The translations under genes and the position numbers were made by a program. The notes beneath the pieces were generated by a model. That model did not search any database, was not told the origin of the DNA, and saw only the letters and a program-made list of their open reading frames with translations. From Eledone cirrhosa (taxonomy: Eukaryota), in NCBI GenBank assembly GCA_964016885.1, contig OZ024748.1:15314001-15378000 (forward strand): a DNA stretch of 64,000 bases, given 5' to 3'. Below are positions 4,111 through 50,968 of the stretch, piece by piece (position 1 is the stretch's first letter; every line of letters starts with the position of its first letter).

Positions 4111-4262
4111 TCTCTCTCTCTCGATCTGTCTATCTTCTAGAAGAATTGGCTGTGTAAAGACAATTACATAACTCCTACAAGAAAATCTTGATTTCGTACG
4201 AGTAAAACAGTTCTAGTTTTGTATAAGTCATTTATATAATAAAATAAATAAATATATATATA

Positions 4263-4363
4263 TAGGGTGTCCCCAAAAAATGTATATACACTTCAACAAC
4301 ATTCTAATAAATATTGCCTGTACAGATAATCAAAGTGTGTATACATTTTAGGGGGATAACCTG
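4263..4363. mobile_element. Tc1/mariner-type MITE
   Basis: TIRs tagggtgtccccaaaaaatgtatatacactt / aagtgtgtatacattttagggggataacctg with TA on both sides. Confidence 0.8.
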
Positions 4364-5389
4364 TATATAACACAAATTTATACTATTTCAATCTTAAAAA
4401 AGAAAAGATTTCGATGAGAGTTGCCCCAATTTATTGTATATTTTCTTTTGTGTGTGTGTGTGATTTAATTGTCTCTGTAATGCAATCTTTGAATGATTCG
4501 ATACCTGTAAAATATATTTGTGAGTTCCACAATATTTTGAAAGTCATTTCGGCATCACTGCCTTAGATAATTACATAAATTATAGTGTAGTAGAATTGTC
4601 AGTAAAATATGAATAATTTCAGATATCTGAAATACTTTTATAACTTATATTAAAGATGTTCCTGCAAAAAAAAAATATATATTTTCTTGGTATTATATAG
4701 TTAAACAATTTTGAGATAACACTATTATTTCCTGCTATTAAATTCAAACTAATCTTTGGATTAATCCTTATATTCACTAGGAAATCTTTTTCTTTTTAAA
4801 ATTTGTATCTAAGAAATCTGCATAGCCATTAGAAAAAGTATTTAAATTTTAAATTAGATTTCAGAAAATTAAGTAAAATTATTTTTATTGTTGATAAAGA
4901 TTTATTGAAATGTCTGAGAAGATGCCAAGAATTAATGCAAAAACATGCAACATTTACTTGGCTATACTTAAATAAAGTTGGCACTGGTTAAAGGTCATTT
5001 TAACTTTTTCAAAATATAGCCAACAAAAGTTTCTTTGATCTAATAATTCATTCTAATAATACAAAATAACCTTAGTAGAAAATTTGAAAATATCTCTCTA
5101 GTCTCTAATGATAATTTCAATATTGGTCAATCCTAGATATAATTCTCTATTATTAAAATCTGTGTCCATATTTTGAATGAATATTCCCTTACTTAATCAG
5201 AAGTCTGAGGTTTAGTAAAAAAAATAACATTTTAACATCTATAATCATAAGAGATTATTGCCATATATTATGACTAGTTGAAATTATTCTAATTGCATCA
5301 AGTAAGGTCACAATAGAAAATGATTGGGGTGTTAGACACACACACAGAGAAGGGTAAAGTTTTAAGATAATAATAATAATGACAATAAT

Positions 5390-5655
5390 GAAGATAACGA
5401 ATGTGGATGTTGAAGACAGAAACAATACCTATAATTATAGGTGCTCCGGGAATGATAAAAAAGCATGCAAACAGATACATAACCAAAACTCCAGGACTTA
5501 CAAATATATACAACATACAAAAAAATAGTACTACTAGGCACCACACACATATTACGAAGAGTACTCTCAATAGAACAAATACCACCAAAAAACCACACTG
5601 TACATATTCAAGGTGCACAGAGCTGCGCTCAGTAATACAGTGATAACACGCAAAA
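5390..5655 (+). mobile_element. 5'-truncated R4/Dong-like non-LTR retrotransposon (C-terminus of RLE domain plus 3' UTR)
   Basis: MWMLKTETIPIIIGAPGMIKK...IQK then, after a 1-nt frameshift, IVLLGTTHILRRVLS; (TAA)n on both flanks. Confidence 0.75.
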
Positions 5656-5935
5656 TAATAATAATACTGATGATGATGATGATGAACTCTTTTCCTACAC
5701 AAATTTGAAAAAAGAAAATTATGTGCAGCACGGCTACTGGGAGAAATAACAGAAATGCATTATAATTGCAAGTCTCAATAATAACTATGTAATTATCTTA
5801 CTATGTCACAATCTTGCTAAGTTTTTGTGTTGAATACAAATATATTGGTGGCTCTACTACAAAACAAATTAAACTTAAGTTGCAGGGGAGGATGAGCCCT
5901 CCAAATTGTATAAGGTGTCCTCATAACAGTTCACT

Positions 5936-6122
5936 GATGAAGATGATGATAGTGATGATGATGATGAAAAGGATGATGAAAATTATGATGAAAATTATGA
6001 TGATGATAATGAAAATGATGTTGATGATGATGCTGATACAGATGACGAAAATGATGTTAATGATGATGATGATAATAATACTAATAAAGCTACAGCTGCT
6101 GATGATAATGATGATAATGATT
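5936..6122. repeat. Degenerate (GAT/AAT)n low-complexity tract
   Basis: Trinucleotide periodicity visible directly; source of ORFs 5814..6221 and 5921..6133. Confidence 0.85.
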
Positions 6123-6518
6123 AATCTGAACAAAATACTTCAAAATGGCAAGATTCAAGTAGTAGATATTTCAGAAATGGTGTCAAATTCATTCAATACA
6201 ATATTAATTCTGTTGCCATGAAGGAATCCATATTGTGTACTTCAGTTCACAGCTAACCATACTGTAGTTGAAAACTGACATCTTACATGTTCACAGATGG
6301 TAACGTTGAGAGATAGAATCTGCCAAACTTGTTAAACCATAAACAAAATGAAATTCTTTACATATACATAACCACTTTACAAAAACCCCTATCACTTTTA
6401 CATCAGCACTACTAATAGGAAAATGTTTTTATAGTAACATTCTGTTTTAACCATGTTCCACAATACTTTACAACAAATATTTTCTCTAAACTTTGCATCT
6501 ACTACTACAGTACTGTTC

Positions 6519-7116
6519 AGTGGTATTAGATAAAGGTATACCAGATCAGAGGTGGTAGTTGTAGTAGTGGTGGTGGTGGGGCTCAGGTAAACTACTCTCA
6601 AGTGGTATTAGATAAAGGTAGACCAGATCAGAGGTGATAGTTGTAGTAGTGGTGGTGGTGGGGCTCAGGTAAACTACTCTCAAGTGGTATTAGATAAAGG
6701 TAGACCAGATCAAAGGTGGTAGTTGTGGTGGTGGTGGAGCTCAGGTAAACCACTCTTAAGTGGTATTAGATAAAATGTAGACCAGAACAGAGGTGGTGGT
6801 TGTGATGGTTGTGGTAGTGGTGGTTGTGGTTGTGGTAGTGGTGGTTGTGGTAGTGGTGGTTGTGGTAGTTGTGGTAGTGGTGGTAGGGGTAGTTGTGGTA
6901 GTGCTGGTTGTGGTAGTGCTGGTTGTGGTAGTGGTGGTGATGGTTGTGGTGGGGCTCAGGTAGACCACTCTTAAATAGTATTAGATAAATGTAGGCCAGA
7001 AAAGAGGTGATAGTTGTGATGGTAGTGCTTGTGGGGCTCAGGTAGAACACTGTTAAGTGATATTAGATAAAGTTAAGCCAGAATAAAGGTGGTTATGGTA
7101 TGGGTCAGGTAGACCA
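6519..7116. repeat. ~82-bp minisatellite with internal (GGT/AGT)n expansion
   Basis: agtggtattagataaa-like motif at 6519, 6601, 6683, 6759, ~6975 and 7056. Confidence 0.9.
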
Positions 7117-7279
7117 TTTGGCATGAACCTAAAATTTGCAGTCCTACTCGCCTCAAGTTTTAATTCTTATACTCTGTTTTCACATTTGTAAATACATCAT
7201 GTACACTAACTACATTTACATGTTTATATCTGTAACTCACAGATAAACCATGTGTATTTAGCATTGATTACTAAAACAT

Positions 7280-7508
7280 TTAACTCTTAACATTCTATAA
7301 TGATTTAGCAGAAATTGTCTAATATCGGGTTTGTTAATTCAAATAATTATAGATTTATATCTTTACTAGAGGGCAGATTGTTGTGAATATTTGCAATATT
7401 AGAAAAAAAGACTAATTTTTAATGTGATGAAGTCATGGTGCTGTTTTTAACTTTTCAAGAATGTCTTGCTAATGTGTTTTTCATGTTGTGTGGGGTGTTA
7501 AGAGTTAA
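7280..7508. mobile_element. TTAA-flanked (piggyBac-like) MITE
   Basis: ttaactcttaaca ... tgttaagagttaa termini; right part recurs near 47700-47780. Confidence 0.7.
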
Positions 7509-7686
7509 TGAGCAGTTTACAGTTAACAGCTTTGGAGACCTAAATTGTAACCTGCTACACTTAATGCTGAGTGAATGAATTATGTATTTTTTACTGTGCA
7601 GGCTTTCCATGGTGGAATCAGAAGTGTACTGAGTCTTGCAATTAACCTGGCCATCCAAGCTACACTGACAAACAGATTGCTCACTA

Positions 7687-7872
7687 TTAACCCTTTAGCA
7701 TTTACATTACTCTATATTTCTCACATAATAACGAATCTATGAGACTTTGATATGATTTATTTTGAGATCAATACCTTAACATAAGTATGAGTGGCCAGTT
7801 ACAGTCAGTTTGAACAGAAAGAAGTAAGAGAATTCTGGCCAGATGCAGCTGGTTTAAATGCTAAAGAGCTAA
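7687..7872. mobile_element. piggyBac-like MITE
   Basis: ttaaccctttagcattta ... taaatgctaaagagctaa termini. Confidence 0.7.
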
Positions 7873-8515
7873 GAGGTGGATTCTATTTTCCTTACAATTT
7901 TTGTACAGTGTTTATATTATCAGTTTCTTTGTTTTGTTTTTTTTACATTTTTTAACATTTTTCTACAACTTTTGTTTTATATTGCCAAAATATCCAGTGG
8001 GCCAGTCCACTTCTGAATGGAAGACTCAACAGGATAGAGACATTAAGGGTGTTGCTACAAGGCTATACCGATGATATACATATGTCCAAAAACTTTTGCA
8101 ATGTAGAAAAGTACATCAGAGTTATAACAAAATAAATTAGCAAAGAAATTCTATAATTTAAATCAGAAAATTATTTCAGACATTTAAAAATTCTTCATAG
8201 AATTTATATATTATTATTCCTATTTTACAAAACCACATATACAAAAACATATATATATATATATGCACAGACATGAATTTATAGTATTCACTCCATTTCA
8301 CTTGATGCAATACATTTACCAAAATAACAAGACAAAAAATGCCAGATAAATAGAATAATGGTTTCCATTTACTTGAAGATTCCAAACTTATTTGTTATGT
8401 TTTCTAAATACTGTAATCATAATATATTCTGAAAACCTACCCATAATTTATATGTGTTTGGGTGTTTGTGGGTGTGTGTCTGTCTAGGTATGTATACTAC
8501 ATATGTGTATCTATG

Positions 8516-8569
<54 letters not shown>

Positions 8570-8856
8570 TATGTATGTGTGTGTATATGTGAAAAAGATT
8601 CAGCAGATTTTCTCTCTTCGATTATTCATTTTAGGACAAATATTCTATTGCATTTGTCAGTCATTAATATTTTAGAACCCTGCATGAATAGATAGATAAA
8701 GAATGAGGGTGGAGTGACTGATGCAATATCGAATATGGATATATAAACGTGATGTGTTATTTATTTAATCTGACACACACACACACACACACATTCCATA
8801 TATTTGTTTCATTTCATTATAATTTTTGTAAAATAAAACAAAATCAAATTTAAAGA

Positions 8857-9088
8857 AATAATAATAATAATGGTTTCTTATATAGGCAAACGGCCAGCAA
8901 ATTTGGGGTGAGGAGAAAGTCGATTAAATCGACCCCTGTACGTGACTGGTACTTTATTTTTTTGACCCTGTAAGGATGAAAGGCAAAGTTAACCTCAGCA
9001 GGATTTGAACTCAGATCATAAAAGGTCGTAACTCTATGCTGCAAAGCATGGCGTCTGACCCTCTACCGATACTGCCAATCCACTGCCC

Positions 9089-9137
<49 letters not shown>

Positions 9138-9248
9138 TGTTTCTACTTTAGGCACAAGGCCAGCAATTACCCAGTTCATTACTGGTACTTTATTTTATCG
9201 ACCCCGTAAGGATGAAAGGCAAAGACAACCTCGGCGGGATTTGAACTC
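8857..9248 (-). mobile_element. Two tandem family A SINEs (full copy 8857-9088, 5'-truncated copy 9089-9248 with long (AAT)n tail)
   Basis: Both contain the core ggtactttatttt..gacccc/tgtaaggatgaaaggcaaag and the B-box. Confidence 0.85.
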
Positions 9249-9282
9249 ATAATAATGATAATAATAATGAAACAAAAAATAT

Positions 9283-9419
9283 TATAAATATATAAATATA
9301 TATATATATACATAAATATATATATACACATATATATATACACATATATACATATATATATATACACACATATATATATATATATATACACATATATATA
9401 TTTATATATACATATACAT

Positions 9420-9462
<43 letters not shown>

Positions 9463-9587
9463 AATATATATATACACATATATATATACATATACACATA
9501 TACACATATATATATACACATATATATATATACACATATATATATACATATATATACACACATATATATATATACATATATATACAC

Positions 9588-9620
<33 letters not shown>

Positions 9621-9703
9621 TATATATATACATATATATATACACATATATATATATACATATATATATATACACATATATATATACATATATATATATA
9701 CAC

Positions 9704-9734
<31 letters not shown>

Positions 9735-9903
9735 TATATACATATATATATATACACACATATATATATATATACATATATATACACATATATATATACA
9801 TATATATATATACACACATATATATATATATACATATATATACACATATATATATATATACATATATATACACATATATATATACATATATATATATACA
9901 CAC

Positions 9904-9934
<31 letters not shown>

Positions 9935-10497
9935 CACATATATATATACATATATATATATATACACATATATATATACATATATATATATATACACATA
10001 TATATATACATATATATATATACACACATATATATATACATATATATATATATACACATATATATATACATATATATATATATACACATATATATATACA
10101 TATATATATACACATATATATATACATATATATATATACACATATATATATACATATATATATATACACACATATATATATACATATACACACATATATA
10201 AAAATATATATATATATACATATACATATACATACATATATATATATACACATATATATATATATATATACACATATATATATATATATATACATATACA
10301 TACATATATATATATACACACATATATATATATATATATACATATACATACATATATATATATATACATATATATATACACATATATATATATATACATA
10401 TATATATATACACATATATATATATACATATATATATATACATATATATATATACATATATATATATACATATATATATATACATATATATATATAC

Positions 10498-10580
<83 letters not shown>

Positions 10581-11652
10581 CATATATATACATATATATA
10601 TACATATACATATATATATATATATACAAATATATATATGTATATAAATATACATATATATATGTATACATATACATATATATATATATATATACATATA
10701 TATACATATATATATACATATACATATATATATATACATATACATATATATATACATATATATATACATATACATATATACATATACAAACATATACATA
10801 TATATATATACATATATATACATATATATATACATATATAGATATATATATATACATATACATATATATACATATACATAGATATACATATACATATACA
10901 TTTATATATATACATATACATACCTATATATACATACATATACATATACATACATATATATACATACACATATACATACATATATATACATACATATACA
11001 TATATATATACATACATAAATATACATCTACATACATAAATATACATATACATATACATACATAAATATATATATACATACATATACATATATATATACA
11101 TATACATATATATACATACATAAATATACATACATACACATATATATATATATATATACATATATATATACATATACATATATATACATACATAAATATA
11201 CATACATACATATACATACATATACATATATATATATATATATATACATATATATACATATACATACATATACATATATATATATATATATACATATATA
11301 TACATATACATACATAAATATACATATACATACATATACGTATATATATACATATATATATTTATACATATATACATATATATACATATATATATATATA
11401 TATACATATATATATAAATACACATATATATAAATACATATATACATATATATATATACATATACATATATATAAATATATACATATATACATATATATA
11501 TACATATACATATATACATATATATATACATATATACATACATATATATATATACATATACATATATACATATATACATATACATATATATATATATACA
11601 TATGTATACATATGTATATACACATATACATATATATATATATATATATATT
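9283..11652. repeat. ~2.4-kb compound (TA)n/(TACA)n microsatellite
   Basis: Almost pure purine-pyrimidine alternation; produces all Y/I/M/C/V ORFs here. Confidence 0.98.
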
Positions 11653-11798
11653 CCTACTATTCAGCTATAATTTTTACCAGTTACGAATCATTAATTTATC
11701 ATAGTTTCTATTTTGTTGTTTTGTTTAATTTTATTTAGTATTTTTTCTTAGCTTTCAGTCGATATTAGGGCAGTAAAATATGCCAGACAGAACAACTA

Positions 11799-11840
<42 letters not shown>

Positions 11841-12283
11841 ACATATATATATATAAACATACATATTTATATATATATAAGTAACATATACTTATATATT
11901 GCATCAGGTGCCTTTCTTTATCTATACAATATGAGATGAAGAGAAGTAAAAAAAAAAAAAAAAAATTTTAAATAATAAATTTTGAAAAAATGAATTTAAT
12001 ACATTTTTTTTATATTTACGTTTGAATATGTTCACTTTTCTCTCTTTTTAAAAGGAATAAATAAAAGAAGAAAAAAATATAGAAACAAAAAAACTAAAAT
12101 AAAATTAAAAAAACATACTTTAAACTACATGAAGGTAGTAAGCTACATAAAACAGATTAATGGAAAATGTATGAAGCAATTTACAGAAATCAATACTTAA
12201 TGGCTTGCTAATATAAAAGTATTCGAGGGTGATTTAGATACATAATTCATACTTGGTATACTAGTGTAATTTTAATGCCAGGG

Positions 12284-12287
<4 letters not shown>

Positions 12288-12334
<47 letters not shown>

Positions 12335-12520
12335 CATACATACACATATATGCTCACACAGGCAATAATATATATATAAATAAATACATACATGCACATA
12401 TATGCTCACACAGACATATATATATATATATAAATAAATACATACATGCACATATATGCTCACACAGGCAATCATATATATATATAAATAAATACATACA
12501 TGCACATATATGCTCACACA

Positions 12521-12553
<33 letters not shown>
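12288..12553. repeat. ~53-bp minisatellite embedded in (TA)n
   Basis: atatgctcacaca motif repeated four times. Confidence 0.85.
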
Positions 12554-12558
<5 letters not shown>

Positions 12559-13312
12559 AAACCTATCATGGAAAACCGACGTTAAATGATAATGATGATA
12601 TATATCATCATCATTACTGTTTTATGTCCTTTTTTTTCTTTCTGGCATGGGTTTGGTTGGTTGTCATGTTCTGAAACTAGACAGGTCTGATGAAACTGTT
12701 TTGCTCATACATTCCATTTTGCATGGTTTCTCTGGCTGGATACCTGTAGTCATGCCAACAACTTTACACAGTGTATTGGATGCATTTTATCATATCACAA
12801 GTACTGAATTTTACAGAGGTAAGTTGATGCATTTTATCATAGGACCAGTATTACAAAACTACATGTATATAATCATCATTGTTTGTATGTAGTTGCTCCC
12901 TTTACTATCATGTGTTGGACATGACAATTTGAAGCAGTCCTCCAAGAGGCCCTTTCTAATGCCAAACCATATAGTCACCTCTTATGATATGAAGAGATAT
13001 AGGATATCTATTCTAAAATCCAGGTAATCCAGGATAAACATTAGATGGAATAATATTGAATTTTTTTGTTGTTTTAACCAAATGACTATCAGATAAGATC
13101 TACTTTTTTTCTGTGTTGGCCTGGTTTTCTAAAATTTGAATTAATTGATATTATTAGAGTTATTTCCCTTGCTTGCTTCTACAAAGGGAATTATTTTCTT
13201 CAAATTTCTTCAAATTGCAAACTGAAAGGAAAATCTCAGTTAATTGAAGATTTTCTGCTGAGTACATTTCATATTGTATTATATGAAACTGTTATATATA
13301 TATATATATATA

Positions 13313-14057: not shown

Positions 14058-14764
14058 TTGTTCTCAGCTGTTAGCCTTCCAGGTCCCATGAAAGGCTTTA
14101 TACTCATCATGAGGTCCTTTTTGAGACAATGTTTTATGGCTAGATACCCTTCCTGGCAACAGCCCTTTTAGTTGCTTTTACAACATACAAGTATATTGTG
14201 TACATATTGTAAACTAGATGCACACATCATCAATAGTTATTCAGTGTTTAAAAGTAATTTATACGACTATCTATTAAAGCTACTAAGAGCTGAGTGGTAT
14301 TTTCTTTATTATATACCTATGTGTTTAAATACGCACATATATATATATATCACGTTTTATATAGAAATGGTTCTACTAATGTATTGAGTACCTTACTAAC
14401 TCTGGTTATCCCCAATAGAATATATACACATGGGTGAGGCAATACATAAGTGATAACGAAAGAAGCAGAATATTCCAAGTGATTGCCGATTATATTAGGT
14501 AAAAAAAGAGAACCTGAATTATGTTGGTTATGTGGTTATGTAATAAGGCATGATGGAATGATAAAGAGACTCATACTGATACAATTCATTTTGAAAATAA
14601 AACAGTTTGGCAATGTTAGTAAAATAACTACGAACATTAAAAGAGTTCAATGTGTAAAGTGGTTGGTGATAGGAAGGGCATCCAGCAGTAGAAGCCATGC
14701 CAAAATGAGAATGTATGTGAGATGTGGTTCCCAGCCTGATTGGGATGCCAATAGGTCTGATTAA

Positions 14765-15949: not shown

Positions 15950-16133
15950 TGCACTGGGGTAATTGCTGGCCTTGTGCCAAAAGTAGAAACTCTATATGAC
16001 GCATAGTTACGGCCCTTGCTCTTCTGAGTTCAAATTCCCGCCAAGGTTAACTTTGCCTTTCATCCTTACGGGGTCGATAAAATAAATGCACTGGGTAATT
16101 GCTGGCCTTGTGCCAAAAGTAGAAACAATTATA
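15950..16133 (+). mobile_element. Family A SINE, 5'-truncated, preceded by an extra tail copy
   Basis: B-box gagttcaaattcc, core, and tail ggccttgtgccaaaagtagaaac present twice. Confidence 0.8.
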
Positions 16134-16589
16134 TTTCTTACCAGACAGATTCCAGAAACTTTTAAAAAATCAAAACCCTTAGAATGGTATTTGTTGCCAT
16201 AGAGTAAATATTTGATATGATCCCTATTTTATAAAATGTTGAACTCTGAGGAACTTTACTCAAAAGAAAACGAAAGGTATTGGATATAAACTGAAAAGAA
16301 AGAAACAATGTCATGATACCTAAGACCACTGGATGTGGTCTGCTATCTTGAATAAATAATGATGATGATAATGATGATGATGATAATAATGATTTCTGGT
16401 ATAGGCACAAGGCCAGTAATTTTCTTTTGGGGGGAGTCGATTAAATCGACCCCAGTCTATTACTGGTGCTTTATTTTATCAACCCCATAATAATAATAAT
16501 AAACAAGAGTATAAGAAAAGGAGAAAAGGAGAAAAGGAGAAGATAAAAATTAACCGGTTAAATAACAACAATGCCTGAGATATCAAAGT

Positions 16590-16777
16590 AATAATAATAA
16601 TAATTGTTTCTACTTTTGGCACAATGCCAGCAATTACCCAGTACATTACTGGTACTTTATTTTATCGACCCTGTAAGGATGAAAGGCAAAGTTAATCTCG
16701 GCGGGATTTGAACTCAGTATGGCAAGGGCCGTCAAAGCATGGCGTCCGACCCTCTACCGATACTGCCAATCCACCGC
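16590..16777 (-). mobile_element. Family A SINE, near full length
   Basis: Close reverse-complement match to 61853-62043. Confidence 0.9.
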
Positions 16778-17182: not shown

Positions 17183-17279
<97 letters not shown>

Positions 17280-18687: not shown

Positions 18688-20612
18688 GAATGATTTAATA
18701 AGGAATGGTGTCTACTGGAGATAGTGACTTGACTGTTATATTGTGTTGGTGTAATGATGAGAGCTTTTAGTAGAAATCATTGCAATAGTGTTTACTAGTA
18801 ACTAGATTCCTCCTCACAAAATGTCTATTACTAGCATCCAGAAATAATAATTGTAAAATGAGCTAACATAGCAGTTGCTTTAATAGCAGTATTATTTCTA
18901 ATTCTTCTCATACATATATGTGTGTGTGTGCGTGTAGAGAGAGAGGGGTGGGGTGGGGTAGGAAGGTAGGTATGTTTGCATGTGTGTTTTGTTTTTTCTT
19001 CCTACAATAATGGAGTTAATGTATATGCCAACACAGTCTGCAGGTGCTATTAATACTAATACTACAATTACTACTACTGTTGCTGCTAATCTCATCTGGT
19101 TACTCTACATGTCAAGTATACAAGATCAGGCAGTGACATATAACTGATTTCCACCTTTCTTTAACATTATTCGAGATTCTGTGAAACAGGGTTGGTGAAG
19201 GATATAGAAATAACTTCCACTGTTAATGAAATGCTGATTGGAGACTCAGTTGATCAGATACTTAAATTAACAGCAATTCATCACAACAGAATAGTATCAG
19301 GAAATATGTAATGCCTCATACAGCATAAGTGTTAATTAAATATAACAAGAGCCAAGACAATTGACTCTCCAATCACATCAATGACATGTGTCAACCTCTT
19401 TGGGATTAACCCCACTACAAAATACACCCAGTACATTCATTAACTAGGTTGGTTATTGGAAAGGGATCCATCTGTAGAAACCATGCTCAAGTCAGAATAT
19501 ATGTAAACGAGACATGGCTACCTGAGACCAAGATGCAAAGTGGTATCACCAAAATGATGGGATTAACTTTTTGTCTTATTTGCAACAGGTCATTCTTTCA
19601 CACTTCACACTCCAATTGTTGGACTACATTAATGATCCTGAGAGGGCCATCATGATGTTTAGCAAACCAGTAATTCCATATATTTCTCTCACACCTTGCA
19701 GACCAGATCAATTATGCTATCTAAATTCGTTCAGTGATGATGAAGCCTTCTGTAAATTATTCGTAAACTATTTTACAGCAAGTTACTCTTGCAAATAACA
19801 GTCTAGTAAAAGTGAAAACATTGAACTATAGTAAATGAATGGGTTTATTGGATTTTAACACTTGAAAGGCTTACTTTAGCTATAAAATTCTGGTTACATT
19901 TCAAAGGTATTTTATGAAAAGCCTTTTCTTTCATCATAGTTGTTGATCCACATCTCTATATGCAAAGTAAACACATTCAATAAAGAAAGCAAAAGATTCT
20001 GAAATGGTAAGCCTAATTAGAGTTTTACAAAAGGCTTATCAAAGAATCTTTATCCAAGATTTATTTACTTCCTGAGATTTCTTTCATTGAACTATTCATA
20101 AATTTAATGGATGGATTCACATTGATAGAGGAAGATGTAAGGAACTCAACTGTGTCAGTGTTGAAGATAGGTTTCATATAAAAGAAACATTAACCTCACA
20201 TAGAACAATTTGCTGTAATAGATTATGGTAGTAGAGATACTGATAATGCAAAGTTATTCGCAAACATTAATTCTACCTACAAGGTATATAGATATTTTTT
20301 AATGTTGTCTGAGTAGAAATACTCAGTTGTATTTACCTGTACTGTTTATTTTCTGTTTAGTTACTTTGTTGTTGTGTTATCTCTCCAACACCAAAACAAA
20401 TTTATACAAAGATTTATCCTAAAGTATGAAACTGTATTACCAAGAGGTGGCTGAAGAGGAGAATAGTTGCTTGTATTTGCTTGTTGCTTGTCTATTTTCC
20501 ATGTGCACATTTGCTAATATATATATATATATGTCCGTATATAGTTGATGGACAGGAGAAAATATTACTCAATGCCAAAGTAAAGATTAAATAGTTATTT
20601 ATTATGGCTAAG

Positions 20613-20690
20613 AAGTGAGAATTGTTGCCCCGGAGTTTCACCTGCACACTGAGTGCACAGGTAAATCTTCAGATTAACAAGACTCACTTT
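20613..20690. repeat. Fold-back remnant related to the 63173-63286 hammerhead-like element
   Basis: aagtgagaattgttgccccggagtttcacctg ... caggtaaatcttcagattaacaagactcactt. Confidence 0.6.
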
Positions 20691-20744
20691 ATTTATATAT
20701 ATATATAAACAAAGGGTGAAGAGGAATCTTCAGTTGCGCCATGG

Positions 20745-38039: not shown

Positions 38040-39090
38040 TGAGAAGATTTAAAAGATCTCGTTATCTCATTTTGATATATTGATGATTTAAAATTCAAAT
38101 ATCTCTTTCAAAGGTATTGATGATAAGCAAAATAGTGAAAGAGAAAAAAAAAATGCAAAATAAAAGACTCAATGAATGAAAAAAAAAAAAGGACAATACC
38201 TACTTAAAGATATGATAATAAAGAGAAAAACAACAAAAGTAACATTATGTAGACGTGAAAGAAATTGAATATTAAAAAATATAGAACTACTAGATTGTGG
38301 AGATAAAGACAAAACTATACATGACTATATAGTTAGAGGGATAGGAGAACTGAAGAAATTATAAAATTATAGGGAAAGCTTAGGCTCTCTTCCTTTATTT
38401 TTCTATTATGGGTTTGTGTGGCTAAGGGAATATATGAAAGTGGAACACATAAGATGAAGCAATATATGGTAGCAAAACATGAAATTTAAACCAGCTGTGG
38501 GTTTGTACTACCACTATTTATACATGGGAGTGAAATATGATTGCTGTTGCTAACAGTAATACATGGGAGTGGGACATGGTTTGTATAGCGACCAGGTATA
38601 TCTAGGAGAGGAAGAAGGTGTATGTTGTCAACATATATAGATAGGAGAGGAATAAAGTTCGTGTTGCCAAGTTTTACACAAGGGTGGAACAGGGAAGGTT
38701 AACCTGAGCAGTAAAGAGAAAACAAGAACAATGTGATATGACAAGGAAAAAAGAATGTTATCACATCAAAAGTTTGAATTAGGTGTGAAGAGATAAGAAG
38801 AAAAACAGGAGTTAGAGATATACGTTAGAAAATAGCCAAATCAAACTTGAGGTGGGCAAGTTATTTAGCTAGGTTGGTGGAAAGACATTTAGCTAGAAGA
38901 TAGGATGGAAAGAACCAGAGTAGGTTTCACGAGAGAGATGCAGAAGGAAAGAGAGATAAAAAATACGATGGAGAGATGATATCGAAGAATATATGAAGGG
39001 CTTGAAGGGAGGTACAAGACCAGTTTGTGCAAGAATGGCAAAGGACAGAAAGGAATGAAAGGGAGTTGAAGAAGGATTGGACTACTATCC
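38040..39090 (+). mobile_element. Highly decayed RTE LINE
   Basis: FVLPLFIHGSE, IRRKTGVRDI..IAKSNLRWASYLAR, IRWRDDIEE, RMAKDRKE. Confidence 0.7.
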
Positions 39091-39424
39091 TAAAGTGTAT
39101 AACAACTCAAGAGATAGTCAGTGGAAATATAAATATACGAAAAAGAACTTCACAATTCACACCTATAGAGCCCCACTTCTATCAGGAAAAGCCATATGAA
39201 ATGAAGCATCTTGCTCAAGAACATAATACACAGCTTGATTCAGGAATCAAACCCATGACCTCATGATCAGGTGTCTAACGCCCTAACCTCAAGACCATAT
39301 GTTTTCATACACCAGACACACATGAGAGAGAGAGAGAGAGAGGGGAGACAGAGAGCTGTATGGATTCAAAAATATTCCTACCTGAAAATATGTCACACAT
39401 TGTATATATATATATATACAATGT

Positions 39425-39470
39425 GTGAAACAATTGTTCTCAGTATGGTGAACTAACTGTTGTGTTACCA

Positions 39471-39526
<56 letters not shown>

Positions 39527-39572
39527 TGGTAACACAACAGTTAGTTCACCATACCGAGAACAATTGTTTCAC
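39425..39572. repeat. ~148-bp palindrome: ~50-bp arms around a (TA)n spacer
   Basis: gtgaaacaattgttctcagtatggtgaactaactgttgtgttaccactta and its reverse complement with one mismatch. Confidence 0.95.
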
Positions 39573-39592
39573 CTTAGCGGATCCTCAGCTCG
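39555..39592 (-). ncRNA. Minimal type I hammerhead ribozyme motif
   Basis: Minus strand CGAG-CTGAGGA-T-CC(GCTAA)GG-T-GAAA-CAATTG-TT-CTCG: stem I, core, stem II, palindromic stem III, GUU triplet. Confidence 0.7.
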
Positions 39593-40717
39593 TAATGGTC
39601 ATGGTTATACGGAATTGGAAGAACAACCGTATATATATATAGATATATATATATACATATATATATATAATCTTAAGCAGTTTCAGCAATGCTAATATAA
39701 GCTATAAAGCATTATATCAGATGAAGTGAGAAAGTCACAGATGACCCATGACCACAGCAATAGGGTTCCATTCAGACAAGCAGAAGTGTGAGGCCAGTCA
39801 GTAGTAGTATTCTGACCTCAAAACTGTGTTACATTCACAGCCAAGATATTGAACTCACATCAGCTCAATCCACTAAGTAGGTAACACAGGGTTAAATAAT
39901 TCACCAGTACAAGCTACAAAAGCGGCAACAGCAGAATCAGCACAATAACATTGACAAGTGTTTAACAATATACGATTTATAGTCTCCTTTAGACTTGGGC
40001 AACATACAATAATCTTTTTCTTTTCTTTTTTCATGATACAAAAATGTCATAATTTTTGCATTTTCCTATTTGGCTTGTTTTTAATTTAATTTTTACCCTA
40101 AAATTATCTTTTCATTCCTATTGTATATCTTAATGGCATAGAGAATAGCAAGGTCTGATAGATATTCTTATAATGTCAGCTTTACAGATCTTATCACACA
40201 CATTTATTCTACAGATCTTCATCTCTTTTCTCACAATTTTTGGATATTTTCCTCTTGAATGTCATTCAATATATCACTTCTGACCTATGTATTATTTCCC
40301 CCAACCCCACTCACATTCCTTTTTTTTTTTTGCATGAAAAAAATATAATGCTTTCCTTAAAAATTAATGTAATGTTGACCAGATTCTCTCCTCTTTCCAT
40401 TCTCACTATTCCACCACCAATAACAACAATACTACCACCACTACAACTATCACCACTATTACCATCACTATCACACATGCCTTGTGGCCCCCCCCCCCTC
40501 TGTATTAAAATTGTGATGGCCTAGTGCCAGCAAAGACTTAACTGAGATGCAATTTTCATTGATTTGAGAATGGCGACTACATTTTGTAAAAACCCACTTG
40601 CAGAATAAATTGCATAGTTATCAATAAAGTCAAATAAAATTCTAATAGAAACAGTCAAATACAAAATACCCTGTAGGAAGCCATAAAAACGATTTTATAT
40701 ATTTTCTCTATAGAATA

Positions 40718-40765
<48 letters not shown>

Positions 40766-42125: not shown

Positions 42126-42212
42126 CAAGGTAGATGACCTTAAAATACTTGTTATTGTGTATGTAAGCATATATATGTATATATATATAGATAGATAGAT
42201 ATATGCATAGAT

Positions 42213-42404
42213 ATCGAGTTAAATCAGGGGTAACCACGGCAAATAAGATACTCAATACAATAGTAGAGTGAAAACATAAATATTTAATATAGAAATGGCT
42301 TCTACAGGACTAGAAATGTTTCATTCATAAGAAATCATCATTCTTGATGATTGCTTATGAATGAAAGTTCTTGTCCTGTAGAAGCCATTTCTATATTAAA
42401 TATT
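42213..42404 (-). mobile_element. Fold-back hammerhead-family element, decayed copy of 48573-48760
   Basis: ~60-bp inverted arms at 42279-42404 plus a unique flank homologous to the reverse complement of 48687-48760. Confidence 0.85.
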
Positions 42405-43751
42405 AACATATTTATATATATATATACCCACTCTGCATCTCATCCTGTATTGAGTACTTCCATGATTACTGGTCTCCCCACTGCAGACTCTATAGATATA
42501 CATATATAAGTCCACTGCTCTCACAATTCTACCACAACTCACCCTAGTGTATATATTATATATCAGTATATTCTTTTTCATTTGAAACTATGGAGGTAGG
42601 TTAGAAATACAGGAGTCAATATGTATTTTATATATTGGTTTTTATTTGTGATTCACTTTACAAGAACATGTTTTCATAGTGACTTCTTACAAGGCTTTTG
42701 TTATCATTATTGTTATTTTTTCTTTACTTTTTTCTATTGTATAACTATGAATACATATGTTGTAGCAATGTTACTAGCTTTTCATTGATTTAACTGCTGT
42801 ATACCAGATGGTTTTGTATCAACGAATCAACAATCTGTCTTGTTTAGTTGACAGCAGCTTTTTCCTTGCCCTTTTACTGTATAAAAATCATCGCCAGATG
42901 TAAAGAGCATACATCAACAACAATAACAATAACAACCATGATAGCAATAACTCTGACGATGTCAATGATGATGATGAATTCTTTTGTACACTAATTTATT
43001 TATTGTTTATTGCTCATCACAAGTTTCAGTTATAAAAAAAAATACAAAATATAAATGCAAAATAAAAATACAAAATAAAAATGAAAAATAAAAATGCAAA
43101 ATAAAAATACAAAATAAAGAAAAAGATGAAACAAAAAAAACTGTAGTCGTATTATTATTATTTGTTTTATTATTATTATTAATGGTAGTAGCAGTAGTAG
43201 TGGTGGTGGTTGGGGGTAGTAGTAGTAGTAAATGGAGGGATAACAAGCTTAAATCTGGCTGCAAGATTCGAAAACAAGTATTTTAGGGGCGGGAGAGTGG
43301 TTTCGTGTTGCAACCATTAGATGTAAATATAAGGTAATTGTAGAATATGACAATTTATGAAGACCAGAAAGAAAAACAAAGTATTGGGGATATTAAGAAA
43401 AGGATAACACTTTTAATACAATTATATACTAAATTATTGTCTAAAACACACATTTCACAAAACAACTTTGTTTTTGTGTCAAACAACTATCATAACAGGG
43501 AAGTGAAACATTGTTTGGGAAATCTTGGGTGTGAATGCCTGCACGTGTGTGTGTTCATGCATGTGCATGTATGTGTGTGCATACATGCATGCCCGCTTGT
43601 GTGTATGCATCCCTCTAATACAATAAACTTGTCAGAAATGGTAGGTATAAATGTTGAACTATCTAATTTGAGAATCAAATTTGAGTCACAGCTTCATCAT
43701 CTTCATTCTTGTTTAACATCAGTTTTCCCTATTTTATTTATATATATATAT

Positions 43752-43962
43752 GATCACTGGGTGAAGAAGTGCCAGGAAATCCCAGTGGAAGGAAGCCGTA
43801 GTGTAGAGGTAGACCAAGAAAGCCCTGGGCAGAGGTGGTGAAAGCTTGTCTCAAATCATTGTGACTCACAGAGGAGATGACAAAGGATGGAATGATTGGA
43901 GAGCTCCTGTTCTGAGAAGGACCCATCCAACTCATGCATGGAAAAACATTACGGTGATGATG
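43752..43962 (+). mobile_element. RTE LINE 3' end
   Basis: DHWVKKCQEIPVEGS, GRPRKPWAEVVK, then catgcatggaaaaa and (GAT)n. Confidence 0.8.
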
Positions 43963-43968
43963 AATATA

Positions 43969-44297
43969 CATGGCTTAGTGGTTAGAGCATTGGCCTTGCA
44001 ATCGAAAGGTTGTGAGTTCAATTCTCAGACCGGGTGATATGTTGTTTCCTTGAGCAAGACACTTTATTTCACATTGCTCCAGTTTACTCAGCTGTAGAAA
44101 TGGGATGATAGGGACTGGGGTCCCTATCATTCCACTGTAAAGTGGACGTGGAGGTGCCATGGCAAAAAAAGCACCCAGCACTGTAAATGAGGTTGGTGTT
44201 AGGAAGGGCATCCAGCTGTAAAAATCAAGCCAGAATCAGTTCCCGTCCCACCCTTGCAAGCAGGGAAAAGCGGACGTAAAATGATGATGATGATGAT
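43969..44297 (+). mobile_element. tRNA-derived CORE-like SINE with RTE-type tail, family B
   Basis: A-box tggcttagtgg, B-box gagttcaattc, ccttgagcaagacactttatttcacattgctccag, tail ...ggacgtaaaa(tga)n. Confidence 0.9.
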
Positions 44298-45949
44298 ATA
44301 TGCAAGAGCTAATGAGGGAGCTAGTATGTGGTTATTCAACCCATGAGGGAATAACAAATAAAGTCACTCCAATCACACCCTATTATTTTAGTGGTCCTGG
44401 AATCCCTGAACACAGGCAAAAGATGAAATAGCCATAACTGGAATGTCTTTCATTATAGGTTTGCTCTATTGGGGCTAAACATAAACACTGAAATACATGC
44501 ACACATGCACACATACTCATTCACTCACTCTTCTACTATATATATCATTATCACTGTCATTGTTTTAATATCGGACCACTGTCACCCCTTGATAAAACAA
44601 CATACTAAGAAAATATAGTACAGGTGAATTGCAAATATATTATCTAAGTATACATGCGTAGTTATGGATACAATATGGCTTGAATGATTAAGAAGTTTGC
44701 TATGAAATTATATGTTCTTGGGATCAATCCCACTAAATGACATGTAGAGGATGTGCCATATATGATAACTTCCAACTGACTTAGCTTTCTGAGTGAAATT
44801 GGGTACATGGAAACTGTTTGGAAGCTCATCAGATGAACTATATTTGTAATTGAAACAACCAAGGTTGTTGCACATTGTCACAATTTCATTGTGCATTAAT
44901 TAAAGGGCATACATATGTTTGTGAAATACTCAGCCAACATACTAATTAATTTCATGAGCACAATGTTCCTTGGACTAAACAACTACAATAGTCATCCTTA
45001 AAACCAACAAAGGTCTATTCCATTATTTCTCAGCTCTCAAAATACTTTCTCAACATGTCCTTACTTAACCTATTGAAAACCGTATCTCAAATAAAATATA
45101 CTGCCTATGGTTTTTAAATATCTTGAAAATAATCATATATATGGATAGATTTTTTAATACAATTAACTTTATCATTATTAAATTCAAATTCAGCACAAAA
45201 AAACAAAAATGCAAAATCAAAATTGTGAACCACTCATCATTGAAAATGAAGAACATCCATTCAATATTATTTCATTCCATTTCACATATGTAGTCCTTTC
45301 AATGATGAAAACTGCATGAAATAAATCCCATTATATACATATATCTTTTTAGAAGTTGACATTTTCTTCTTACATATAAGCAATGAAGTAGTTACTTCAG
45401 ATCAAGTTGGTAATATAAAAACTACACAAGGCAACTTGTCTGAATTTTTAACTCACTTCCATTAAAGTAGATTTTGCTATTAACACCATGATAAAGAGAA
45501 GTAAGATGCTGCCAAAATAAATTGATTTCAGAAATAAATTGATTTCAGAAGTGACAATAAGTATGAGGAAAATTTGCAACATAAAATTGAAACCTTAAGG
45601 AACTCCTTGTCAAGAAATGTGATTTTTATTTTCAGTAAATTCAATCTACCACTGCTCACTCCTTACATCTGAGCTGTGAAACATCAATATGCATGTTACA
45701 AACACATTGGCTGAAAACATTAACTTTCTATAAGAGTAAACTGACTCACATAGTACAAAGAAAATTATTTCCACTATATTGTGTCAAGGAACAACAGCAA
45801 GATTTCTTAGTTTGTAACTTAAAGAATGAATGCCATTTTGACCTTAACTAAAAGCCACATTTACTTTTATGACTATGTACGAATATTTTTCAAAGAAGAA
45901 TCCTAGATTAGCTTAACTACAAGCAGCACAAAAATCAACCTCTGGAATG

Positions 45950-46350
45950 TAACACTTTAATCTGATTAGTGCAGAAGTTATACATAGCAGAAAGTCAAAA
46001 CTGCTTTTCTGAACGATTAATATGGTTTTGAATAGCTTGCTTTCTTGGAAACAAATCAGCCGATAAGTACTGATAAATCTCACACAAAACACTGAAGCAA
46101 GTGAACAAAAATTATTGATCAGAATATATGAAAGTCACTTACATTGTATTTTTATGTTTCACTAGAAGAAAGTGTATATTAATGATTTGCTCTGTGTGTC
46201 ATAGAGAGAGTCTTTAGTTGTTGCAAAGAATTATCAGTGAGAACCATTCAACAGGAACTCTTTTGACAACCGATTCTTTATCAAAACCATTGCCAGTGAA
46301 TTGGCTATAGAATCCCTTGCTGAAAGAGAGCCTGATTCTCGTTGGATGAA
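45950..46350 (+). pseudogene. Probable hAT transposase fossil
   Basis: Ordered fragments LLSWKQI/ISTD, CHRESL, then NRFFIKTIASEL...PDSRW, matching hAT motifs STDG, CxxH and RW, with stops and frameshifts. Confidence 0.45.
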
Positions 46351-48267
46351 AGTAAGACAAAATAGTGTCCCAACAATCATAATCATCCATTTATGTCTGC
46401 TTTTCCATACTTGCATGGAGTGGATTGGTCTTCTGCAGTACAGCCTGCTCCAACTCATTGTGTTCTATTATGATCATGATCTTCTCTGTGAGGTTCAATG
46501 CTTTGAGATCAACTTTTCCAGCTTCTTTGAAGACCCGGCTAGCCAATGCAAGCAGGGAAAGTGTACGTTAAATGATGATGATGATGAATGCTGTATAACT
46601 AAATAGTTAAGAATTTGCTTTGCAACAATTGGGTCCTCAATTCATTCCAACTGTGTTATATCTTGGACAAATGTTTTCTACCTAAGCTTTCATTTACCAA
46701 CGTTTCGTGGGGGAGAATACGTGGATAGGAACTGTTTTGAAGACTATCAAATGGAGAGCTGGCCTTGTTACACAATGTGCCACACTGAATTTCCCTGAGA
46801 ATTATATTAAGGGTACACATGTCTGTGGAATACTTAGCTATTTACATGTTAACTCTTAAAGGTATATAACGAGTTAGCACAAAATATCTAAAAGTGGGTT
46901 TAATCAATTGATCAGAGCTATATTTAATCAATTGATCAGAGCTATATAACAATTATAAATATGAAGAGAAAATAGACAAAATAAACCTAATTTTTTTTCA
47001 AAGTCCTGACTGTAGAGTTTCACTGAGTGGTAGCAGCCAGAATGTAACTAAAGTGCAGCAGGGTCATGAGGCTATTGGCTTTTCAATGAAAGGGCGAATT
47101 CTTGAACTGACCACTACAAGTGTAAAATTTTCGAGAGGGAGAATTATTGCATGGTATAACAGTCACAATTATTATGGTATCTTTACTTGTGGAAATCATC
47201 ATGGAAATTTATAGTATTAAAGTAAAGGCTTATTATTCATATCATTAGAGAAAAGGTTAATCCTCCATATTATATCCTTAGTGCTGCATTATTTAAATAA
47301 TATTACATAAACTCTTATTGTAGCCCTAATCTCCATTTGTCTTCCTTTCTTTCTTGTCATTTCTATGTGCCAACATACTTCTCCCCCTCCTCTCTCAATA
47401 GTTTCTATTTGTCACTCACCTCACAACTTACTTTTCTCTTTACTGGCCACTAATTTCTGTCCTTACCTGACTTACACGCAGTCATTAACAACATTTAGCT
47501 GTTTTAACGGCTATTCTTGCATTTGAGTTTTCAAATTCTTTTATGAATTTTAAATAACCTGTTTTAGGGGAAACTTTTACAACAAGACATTTTATTTTAG
47601 TATATGATTTTTTAACATTGGTATTGCTTTTGTATAAAAAAAAAGGCACTAAGAATAAATATACTTCCTGGAATATATATTTTAAAAAACGATAAAGGGA
47701 TGCAGTCACAGCACTGTTTTGTAATTTTCAAGAATGCCTTGCTAATTCAGTTTTGGTGGTACAGGATATTAAGAGATAATTTAACAAGAAAGCCATTACA
47801 TTCCTTTAACAACTGTAATACTGATCGTCAAAACTAACAGATCCTTTCTAGACCCTTCAGCTATAACCAAACATCATAACAACTCTGCTATCCATAACCC
47901 TGCTTTAGTGATGGCATGGTGATTTATAATAAAAATAGCTACGTAGTATATACAACACAAGTTCTGGGGTTGCACCATATTATAAAGTGTTAAAACATTT
48001 GTTTAAACAGCATGTATATATGTTTAGTGTATAATAATACCATGGAAACATACACACACACATTTTTTTTTAATGTTATGTATATATTTCTATGTTTGTT
48101 TCAACCAATTTAGTGAATATTCTGATCTCTGAGCAAATTTCCAATTATATATTGCTAAACAAAATTTTTATGAAAGTTAGTAGCATGCTTGGAATGCTGA
48201 AACTAGTTATTCAATGTAATGTCATATTATATATATATATATTTATCAGTATTCAAATCATGCTAGC

Positions 48268-48286
48268 AATATATATATATATATAG

Positions 48287-48329
<43 letters not shown>

Positions 48330-48336
48330 TATATAG

Positions 48337-48387
<51 letters not shown>

Positions 48388-48407
48388 TATATATATAGTT
48401 ATTTATT

Positions 48408-48451
<44 letters not shown>

Positions 48452-48469
48452 TATATATAGTTATTTATT

Positions 48470-48515
<46 letters not shown>

Positions 48516-48570
48516 TATATATAGTTATTTATTTATATATATGAATATATATATATATATGTATATATAT
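48268..48570. repeat. Minisatellite of (TA)n plus gttatttattt units
   Basis: atagttatttattt repeated about five times. Confidence 0.9.
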
Positions 48571-48580
48571 ATTATAGAAA

Positions 48581-48631
48581 AGCTTCAACAGGACTAGAAC
48601 TGTTTCATTCTTGCGAAATCATCAGGAAGCT
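48581..48631 (-). ncRNA. Type I hammerhead ribozyme motif (antisense twin)
   Basis: AGCTTC-CTGATGA-T-TTC(GCAA)GAA-T-GAAA-CAG(TTCTAGTC)CTG-TT-GAAGCT. Confidence 0.75.
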
Positions 48632-48678
48632 TCCTGATGATTTCGCATGAATGAAACAGTTCTAGTCCTGTAGAAGCT
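48628..48678 (+). ncRNA. Type I hammerhead ribozyme motif
   Basis: AGCTTC-CTGATGA-T-TTC(GCAT)GAA-T-GAAA-CAG(TTCTAGTC)CTG-TA-GAAGCT; three helices and full core; predicted cleavage after GUA at 48672. Confidence 0.8.
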
Positions 48679-48759
48679 CTTCTATATTAAACATTTATAC
48701 TTTGCATTGTATTGAGTACCTTACATACTGTGGTTACCTCCGATTGAACCCGGATTAAC

Positions 48760-48791
<32 letters not shown>

Positions 48792-49424
48792 ATTTATTTA
48801 TATATATGAATTTGTGTGTGTATATATATATATATTAAAACACACACACACATATATATATATATATATTCTATTATCATGTTTCAGTGATAAATTCACT
48901 CATTGGTGGGGATTTAGATTCTGTCTGATAAGATTACTTTTAGATGATAAAATTTAAATCATGTGTCATGTATTATGTATATTGAAGTTTATGAAAAAAC
49001 AAAAACAAAAAAGAGTTATAGTTGACTAAATTCTTTTTAGTTTTAGCTAGAACTATATTGATGGTAGTACACACATAAATGTATGGAGGGGTCGCAGCAG
49101 ATGAAGATAAAAGTTTGTCTCTCTCAGATGAATAATTTTAACTTTGTTTTCTCTCTCTCATGCAGAACTGTTCTGCATTTTGAGCAAAACAAACTCTCAT
49201 TGTGTCTGAATTGCTCTTTTGTTGTTGTTGTTTTTTTATGTCTAAGCTAAGAACGCCAGACACAGAACATTCCATTCCAGGAGGATCTTAGACATTCAGG
49301 AACCACAGAGAGAGGAGTGGTGATAACTGCAACAGCTCAAGTGTACTGGCATAAGATTACATGCTTTGTGCACATCAAGGCATGAGAAAACCTCAGACTG
49401 AAAATAAAAAGTCTGAAAACTAAG

Positions 49425-49730
49425 GACAGCCTCCATGACTTTAATAAGGCCTCATAGAGTAGAGTGAGGTAAAGGAAAGAGAAACCATGATTCATGAGAC
49501 ACTGCAATAGGAAATAGTGGATTAAAATATTAAGGTAGTTTCTGACCCAAAACATGGTCTGAATGCTTAGAATAGATAGCCTCCATGACTTTTATAAGGC
49601 CTCACAGATTGGGGTGAGGAAAAGGAAGGAGAAACCATGATGTATGAGACACTGCAATAGGAAATAGTGGATTAATATATTGAGGTAGTTTCAGACAAGA
49701 AACATGGTTCAAAGACTTACAATAGAATAG
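49425..49730. repeat. ~150-bp tandem duplication
   Basis: agcctccatgacttt...atgagacactgcaataggaaatagtggattaa...aaacatggt twice. Confidence 0.9.
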
Positions 49731-49955
49731 ACTCAGATATAAAGAACTGAAGCACCAGGTGTCAGTGTTATTGATAATTATTTCAACATCCATCTTATGG
49801 AAGAAACAAAACAGTGCATCAAAATATTGAGTTGTTGTCAGACCAGAGATAAATGTGCATATAATGTATATATGTATTATATGTATATAGACACACATAT
49901 ACACGCCCTTATACATAAACATATATACATACACTGATATACAAACACACACATT

Positions 49956-49989
<34 letters not shown>

Positions 49990-50896
49990 CACCCATATAT
50001 ATATTCACACAAATACAGACACATACATACATACATACACACACACATATATATATACACCCATACATTCAGAAATATCTGTGAATGTTTACCATCTACA
50101 ATAGACGACCAGCATTAGTACAATACCACAATACCACTATCTACTCACTCCAATATAGCATCAATTAACGTTTTCAACATAATAAACAAAACATTTCTAT
50201 ATTTGGACACTTAACACTGAAGACAATGGCCTTTACGTGGTATAGACTCAAAACAACGAAATATACTAAACTATTTTCAGAATTTACAATGTATCAGTAA
50301 TATAACTTTTAATTGATGAAATAAGTTAGAATTTTTAATAATTATGGGATATAAAAATCTATAAATAATTATGTTTTGCAAAAGAAGATTTGTTTCCAGA
50401 TCTAAGTGTTTCTTTAAGAATAAAATGCTTTCCACATACTATTGATAGTGAAAGGCTGTCAAATATTTTCCATAAACATCCTGTATATTATTTGATATAC
50501 ATCACATACATAAATGCATATAACACTATGTTGGAGCACCAATACTAATTCTTTTAATTTGCGAAGCCAGCTGCCACTCCATCAGCTCATATGCATAAGC
50601 ATGAAATCTATAAGATTCTAGCTTGTTTTTGACTCGGCGGAATCTAGGTGGATGCGTAACTTTCACAACCACAAATAAGCAAGAAACAACGTTGTCAGTT
50701 ACTTCCCCCTTGTTTTTGCTAAGGCAAGGATGTGTGACAGTAGACTCAACCTTAAAAATTTATAGCGAAAGGCTCTCAAATGTTTTCCATAAACATCCGT
50801 TATATTAATCAATATACAACATACATGCGTGTGTGTATATATATATATAATAGATGGATGCCCAATGTATATCAAGAAGTGACCACAGTTAAATAA

Positions 50897-50968
50897 GTAA
50901 GAAATCATCAAGAAAATCCTGATAATTTCTTACAAATGAAACGGTTCTAGTCTTGTCGAAGTCATTTT
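50897..50968 (+). mobile_element. Decayed copy of the 48573 hammerhead element with short fold-back
   Basis: gtaagaaatcatcaag...cctgataatttcttacaaatgaaacggttctagtcttgtcgaagtcattt. Confidence 0.7.

Follow-up and report, generated by a model that had tools for sequence, protein, structure and literature searches.

We identified a dispersed repeat family carrying hammerhead-like motifs (family 1) in a 64,000-nucleotide window of the Eledone cirrhosa genome (contig OZ024748.1, positions 15,314,001 to 15,378,000), the whole stretch of DNA analysed here and the source of all copies studied. Our preferred reading, to which we assign a probability of roughly 0.6, is that its loci are the extreme 3' ends (pseudo-long terminal repeat, or pLTR, stumps) of a Penelope-like element (PLE), joined by two-primer insertion at (TA)n tracts. 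PLE origin as such is very probable, and this class, which the original prediction did not name, accounts for nearly all features of the loci; the two-primer step, taken by analogy, has an even chance of being correct. Membership in the Hydra clade of PLEs is likely, an assignment made on RNA motifs only, since no coding remnant was found. The original prediction of a (TA)n-associated retroelement family whose fold-backs concentrate just upstream of the ribozyme core was supported.

Family 1 is a genuine dispersed family. Its four previously listed loci, here called copies A (beginning at 48573), B (42213), C (50897) and D (4180), proved homologous: a query of positions 48625-48765 matched 42215-42340 (E-value 9e-27), 42341-42404 (3e-13), 50917-50961 (9e-8) and 4189-4237 (1e-6). 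The same query matched 14380-14420 (1e-6), which revealed a fifth, previously unlisted copy E, and a profile search of the window agreed on these five loci, the next match having an E-value of 0.55. Association of the named loci with (TA)n was also borne out. All five copies had an end no more than 12 nt from a tract of at least five TA units (nearest ends at 1, 9, 1, 12 and 2 nt). Comparison with random placement, which the original prediction had proposed, gave a joint chance of ~5e-6 with element ends placed by eye, and among 60 other dispersed-repeat loci used as a control, including both loci of family 3 described below, only two ended within 15 nt of (TA)n (Fisher p 2.5e-6). This adjacency fits targeting of such tracts and later growth of TA at the ends equally well. 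Five loci per 64 kb correspond to a Poisson range of 25-182 per Mb; three of the five lie within 9 kb, so this figure holds for the window only. Hammerhead families made up four of the seven local inverted repeats in the masked window.

When oriented, the copies are built alike: (TA)n is followed by a short inverted arm, which a junction connects to a sense arm consisting of the ribozyme motif, an AT-rich spacer and a tail (Table 1). A short arm is thereby joined head-to-head to a longer arm bearing a tail of ~65 nt. Short arms reach a microsatellite ~14-32 nt past the predicted cleavage site, and long arms do so after 88 nt (A) or 113 nt (B), a pattern seen in two mutually unrelated families (1 and 3). 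The inverted 5'-truncated copy is present in A, B, C, E and both family 3 loci; the tail is one-sided in A, C and E and two-sided in B. In copy A, the short arm stops ~14 nt beyond predicted cleavage, at (TA)n, and the junction palindrome overlaps the 5' strand of helix I (48628-48633). This copy is flanked on both sides by an identical 23-bp unit (48524-48546 and 48789-48811) within a TA-rich minisatellite of 62-bp period, and the unit represents either a long target duplication or mere array structure. A bulged hairpin at ~48699-48717 in the copy A tail is retained, with differing loops, at 42250-42269 and in the second tail of copy B. Its folding z-scores are weak (-0.1 to -1.5), and it may be considered a candidate protein-binding signal.

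Deletions appear to have reshaped several copies. The arms of copy C seem short because its long arm lost ~75 nt, likely between 4-nt stretches of microhomology; its short arm runs into (TA)n ~16 nt beyond predicted cleavage. The 17-bp arm of this copy extends into tail-homologous sequence (1 of 1,500 background windows scored as high), with the locus starting at ~50850. This resumption of the tail was weaker with a longer profile (33 of 1,200), and one global alignment put the tail piece elsewhere. The hairpin of copy D is not significant by itself (104 of 300 shuffles), and its left flank (55 of 1,200 background windows) suggests a long arm, now deleted, at that side; a profile search for a tail left of this copy was not significant. 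Copy E is without the central palindrome and the ribozyme, and a microhomology of 5 nt, such as that at its junction, is expected in 0.8% of random deletions. The junction (14371-14377) lies within ~3 nt of the predicted cleavage site, and insertion from cleaved RNA, instead of a later deletion, could have produced this copy. No background window out of 1,500 scored as high as the second tail of copy B, and an 8-bp direct repeat (42207-42214 and 42492-42499; chance ~0.013) flanks copy B together with this tail.

The fold-back just 5' of the core, claimed originally, was seen in copies A, B and C. Hammerhead positions such as C3 and G8 follow the established numbering. The fold-back centre of copy A precedes C3 by 4 nt and predicted cleavage by 43 nt; across A-D the distance from junction to cleavage site is ~39-46 nt, the junction being upstream, and the intact arms continue through the site. 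Three junction types were found, one in A, a second, identical 7-nt one in C and D, and a third in B. By eye, the long arm of A, C and D starts at the first base of helix I. The junction of the family 3 copy at 63173 occupies roughly this position too, copy B starts a few bases inside, the family 3 copy at 20540 folds back in loop II, and copy E is uninformative. Clustering of junctions at the ribozyme is real, with at most four or five independent events behind it. Their position, mostly at the 5' edge of helix I, may be novel: the literature within our reach, which excluded most subscription papers, yielded nothing linking PLE inversion points to helix I and nothing on these families. Arm lengths do differ, as had been claimed, mostly through later internal deletions. 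The two arms of one copy are mismatched at 3 of 51-52 sites, arms of A versus B at 5-7, and copies C and D show 12 differences in 50 sites despite their shared non-palindromic junction. Nowhere among the five loci does a family 1 arm reach further than ~8 nt 5' of the core, suggesting either a short template or a strong stop.

The motif of copy A comprises a 6-bp helix I, an exact core (48634-48640), a U-flanked 3-bp helix II, a GUA triplet and a 4-bp helix III with an 8-nt loop, with cleavage predicted between 48672 and 48673. The CUGAUGA core of the original prediction, exact and accompanied by three helices, was confirmed for both arms of copy A, that is, for only two of the six arms aligned, and the remaining arms carry core lesions. 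As for its "twin" hammerhead, two motifs do exist; they are on opposite strands, one per strand, and do not form a working twin. A descriptor scan gave four matches in the window, compared with 0-1 in each of 20 shuffles, namely both copy A arms, family 2 and a probable chance match at 38350, which was set aside. A scan of bacterial and archaeal genomes gave two exact matches, neither extending into the motif, which were taken as chance. The best support for a ribozyme comes from comparison: the framework is shared, with different stems, by two unrelated families of the window, and the U..U closing occurs in Hydra families.

Folding predictions suggest that the ribozyme is inactive within these loci. 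The predicted hairpin (-94.9 kcal/mol) is far more stable than the ribozyme fold (-7.4 kcal/mol; ribozyme pair probabilities <1e-14), and the ribozyme is therefore predicted to be buried. Because the arms are head-to-head, a transcript from either side contains the antisense arm before the sense arm, and the prediction is that the stumps cannot cleave themselves. In a predicted dimer, the helix III regions cofold at -12.8 kcal/mol versus -1.4 kcal/mol alone.

Table 1. Hammerhead-associated features in the 64-kb window
Feature	Position	Strand	Remarks
Copy A, short inverted arm	48573-48629	-	Hammerhead motif, intact core, GUU triplet
Copy A, junction	48626-48633	.	Perfect 8-bp palindrome, centre between 48629 and 48630
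Copy A, type I hammerhead-like motif	48628-48678	+	Putative ribozyme, predicted cleavage between 48672 and 48673
Copy A, AT-rich spacer and one-sided tail	48679-48760	+	Ends 88 nt beyond cleavage at (TA)n
Copy B, long arm and tail	42213-42340	-	Without helix I 5' strand and C3
Copy B, second arm	42341-42412	+	C3 to U, 2-nt deletion after GAA, then (TA)n
Copy B, diverged second tail	42427-42492	+	Past (TA)n, bulged hairpin kept (42430-42455)
Copy C, long arm	50850-50911	-	Internal deletion of ~75 nt, helix II joined to distal tail
Copy C, junction and short arm	50912-50970	+	7-nt junction (50912-50918), core G8 to A
Copy D, decayed short arm	4178-4240	+	3-nt core deletion; 7-nt junction (4181-4187) same as copy C
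Copy E	14352-14421	+	Inverted-arm outer end joined to tail at 5-nt microhomology (~14372-14376)
Family 2 (unrelated)	39425-39629	.	Hammerhead on minus strand at 39588, U..U closing, self-complementary helix III
Family 3 (unrelated), copy 1	63173-63345	+	Short inverted arm, core at 63231
Family 3, copy 2	20540-20695	-	Decayed fold-back centred in helix II loop

Two further hammerhead families were detected. Family 3 has the same head-to-head layout of a short and a long arm as family 1. Its first copy has a junction close to where helix I begins on the 5' side, and a tail ending ~90 nt past cleavage at (CA)n; the second copy has (TA)n at each end, and a core-like match at 20672 is probably its decayed inverted arm. 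Helix III of this family is similar to that of the Hydra table entries with actc-n-gagt. Family 2 has a truncated partner (39425-39472), placed tail-to-tail with it across (TA)26. Over the wider family 2 interval (39394-39629), 9 bp of flanking DNA are duplicated in inverted orientation around (TA)8, next to the 5' end of the left copy.

Published PLE traits include a 5' end that carries an inverted, 5'-truncated copy, a tail that is usually confined to one end, and a (TA)n bias (Craig et al. 2021, PMC8557442). Head-to-head palindromic PLE junctions and microhomology-mediated deletions are on record (PMC3846280), as are minimal hammerheads on opposite strands 100-700 bp apart (PMC4209133). In Octopus vulgaris, 190 PLE families are reported to make up 6.83% of the genome (PMC13282606); the 5,371 characters of the supplement of this repeat paper contained no match to the motif.

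With Hydra-clade PLEs, among them Hydra-1_Obim of Octopus bimaculoides (PMC8557442), the loci share a type I hammerhead ~100-200 nt from the 3' end and, by eye, a U..U-flanked helix II, an acag/ctgt helix III in some families and insertion at (TA)n. By eye, the UU-bulged hairpin of copies B and E is also seen in the tail of Hydra-2_Amil. Counted by eye, the core "ctganga-t ... t-gaa" is present in 14 of 25 Hydra-clade families (File S2) and an acag/ctgt-a helix III in 3; the Hydra sheet gives (TA)n for 26 of 27 families and describes Penelope-13_HM with an inverted 5'-truncated copy (PMC8557442). Unlike these families, the present loci have a helix III loop of 8 nt (versus 1-3 nt), no open reading frame (ORF), a ~65-nt tail, an insert of <200 bp and a sequence distinct from those listed. 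Insertion at (TA)n is also found in Naiad and Neptune and is thus non-diagnostic for Hydra, a clade defined by DKT and RWK motifs, a CxCX5C linker, absence of CCHH and reverse transcriptase (RT) phylogeny (PMC8557442). A missing ORF is expected for truncated stumps.

Penelope pLTRs of Adineta vaga (PMC3846280) are similar in their head-to-head repeats, junction palindromes and optional one-sided tail, and also in solo pLTRs, microhomology-mediated deletions and 8-10-bp target site duplications (TSDs). They differ in having palindromes of 18-38 bp on pLTRs of ~200 bp that flank ORFs; in that paper the word "hammerhead" occurs 0 times, and ribozymes are not considered. A Poseidon protein nicks and extends both strands from two internal starts, which set the limits of the tail, and it works without cleavage by the ribozyme (Frangieh et al. 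2024, PMC11167929). The element in question, PAc of Anolis, resembles family 1 in its AT-rich target and the two start sites defining the tail, whereas its ORF starts within the ribozyme, its start sites are farther downstream and it belongs to a different clade. Animal non-LTR retrozymes (bioRxiv 10.64898/2026.07.22.740005) are likewise short, non-coding, PLE-derived and equipped with a type I hammerhead. Their units are tandem and head-to-tail, in contrast to the head-to-head units here, from which a same-strand dimer or circle is impossible in cis. The motif was absent from tandem arrays in the window and all pairs were inverted, and retrozyme identity was rejected.

Under the preferred reading, a GIY-YIG endonuclease supplied by an autonomous partner would nick both strands of a (TA)n tract. 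Uncleaved RNA would then be reverse-transcribed from two internal sites, ~+15-30 and ~+88 from the cleavage position, one per DNA strand, and both cDNAs would stop at or near the helix I base and be joined via 2-4-nt microhomology. The resulting 55-bp palindrome would be unstable, and microhomology-bounded deletion could later remove its centre or part of an arm.

Several observations weigh against this reading. Among the matches listed in Rfam searches (150 of 209 for the whole window, and 12 for the copy A arm) there was no hammerhead; the microRNA matches found there were regarded as microsatellite or hairpin noise. Pairing in helix II is weak (probability 0.05-0.07), shuffled sequences fold as well as any of the arms, and covariation across six arms is thin (2 of 13 pairs, with 104 of 500 shuffles as high). 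No remnant of an RT or GIY-YIG domain was found in 183 reading frames compared with Pfam, and no exact match to the family 1 motifs in the Craig 2021 supplement. The ~65-nt tail exceeds the published 30-40 nt, and the second tail of copy B is unexplained by the model. U..U closing was surveyed in the Hydra clade and may not be exclusive to it. Finally, the model for the two-primer step is a single Poseidon element studied in vitro, and snap-back of cDNA would yield the same product.

This snap-back is a close second to two-primer joining. The PLE origin would be the same; nascent antisense cDNA would fold back at a short self-complementary stretch of the ribozyme, copy itself and then switch, at the AT-rich spacer, to the opposite end of the target, a sequence of events we regard as possible on a tentative basis. 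Palindromes at PLE junctions were read as self-priming on an antisense template by Arkhipova et al. 2013 (PMC3846280), the second family 3 copy is centred on the helix II loop, and short arms end in an AT-rich stretch resembling the target. However, the loop of copy A has zero nucleotides, which leaves little to prime on, and in vitro work has demonstrated two tail-delimiting start sites and the extension of both strands (PMC11167929).

It is rather improbable that the ~190-bp palindrome is instead a non-autonomous master copied as a unit, with an inherited junction, a scheme that fits either origin of the fold-back. The limited upstream reach of the family 1 arms and the identical junction in the otherwise diverged copies C and D would be explained in this way. 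Three junction types among four copies would not, nor would the same layout in an unrelated family. Moreover, arms group by copy and not by side (gene conversion could do so too), and the junctions of A and C complement, by eye, their own helix I 3' strand, as if cut from parents with working ribozymes.

The mechanism proposed originally, self-primed reverse transcription from the cleaved RNA end, is very unlikely. Hammerhead cleavage leaves a 2',3'-cyclic phosphate, which cannot act as a primer. The inverted arm of copy E does stop within ~3 nt of the predicted site, and a deletion at its 5-nt microhomology explains this equally well. In the other four of the five copies the junction is far upstream and the arms cross the site; in particular, the fold-back 43 nt 5' of cleavage, with both arms intact through the site, argues against cleaved-end priming. 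The geometry is also head-to-head, and cleavage is dispensable in vitro (PMC11167929).

An ordinary palindromic miniature inverted-repeat transposable element (MITE) or foldback DNA transposon targeting (TA)n, with an incidental ribozyme match, has hardly any chance of being correct: the loci are short, non-coding, palindromic and TA-flanked, and an 8-bp direct repeat surrounds copy B with its second tail (TSDs would otherwise be masked by (TA)n), but the ends vary, the outer ends are not mutual inverted repeats (the tail is absent left of A and E and right of C and D), and one hammerhead framework is preserved, on different stems, in three families that are unrelated to each other. The original prediction had named terminal inverted repeats or TSDs of DNA-transposon type in advance as the mark of a MITE; the outer ends of A, C and E are asymmetric and lack such repeats.

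The window itself is AT-rich (mostly 28-35% GC), crowded with (TA)n and related microsatellites, and looks like non-coding animal DNA. A Pfam scan of 183 of the 211 reading frames of at least 58 residues, the 28 others being mostly low-complexity or overlapping and all shorter frames being outside the scan, detected no recognisable gene; three weak matches below the cut-off (E-value 0.006-0.009) were neither RT nor endonuclease. ARAGORN found no tRNA in the window. A frame at 54810-55169 resembles the C-terminal end of a protein of an RTE-type long interspersed element (LINE); a search with 54846-55166 returned only 17 unnamed proteins. Other repeats include an abundant ~190-bp family resembling short interspersed elements (1652-1844, 8874-9253, 15997-16777, 51715-51906 and 61852-62075), with an inverted pair at 16009-16732 and no tie to (TA)n, and an inverted pair of a 319-bp repeat (43968-44281 and 54039-54357, 95% identical), whose locus at 54 kb has additional internal inverted pieces. 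Very long degenerate TA/CA arrays occur at 9283-11651 (2.4 kb) and 60275-61479 (1.2 kb), and related tandem repeats at 376-666 and 56800-57063, with periods of 117 bp and 45-96 bp, have one short motif in common.

The finding is mostly ordinary, because this structure has already been published for PLEs. Two questions have been described as open, namely why PLEs carry hammerheads (PMC8557442) and how their inverted repeats arise (PMC3846280). If thousands of stumps have junctions that accumulate at the edge of helix I, a genome-wide map of them would help to choose between two-primer joining and snap-back and would assign the ribozyme a function beyond cleavage. Such copies are easily misannotated as MITEs or microRNA hairpins. 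As a speculative extension that we hold with low confidence, several PLE families of this genome might spread as ~190-bp palindromes that begin, at their 5' limit, where hammerhead helix I has its base. In that case the ribozyme would serve as a structural boundary of the reverse-transcription template and not as a cutter, and every insertion would lock it under its antisense strand. If true, tens of thousands of long RNA hairpins would have been seeded.

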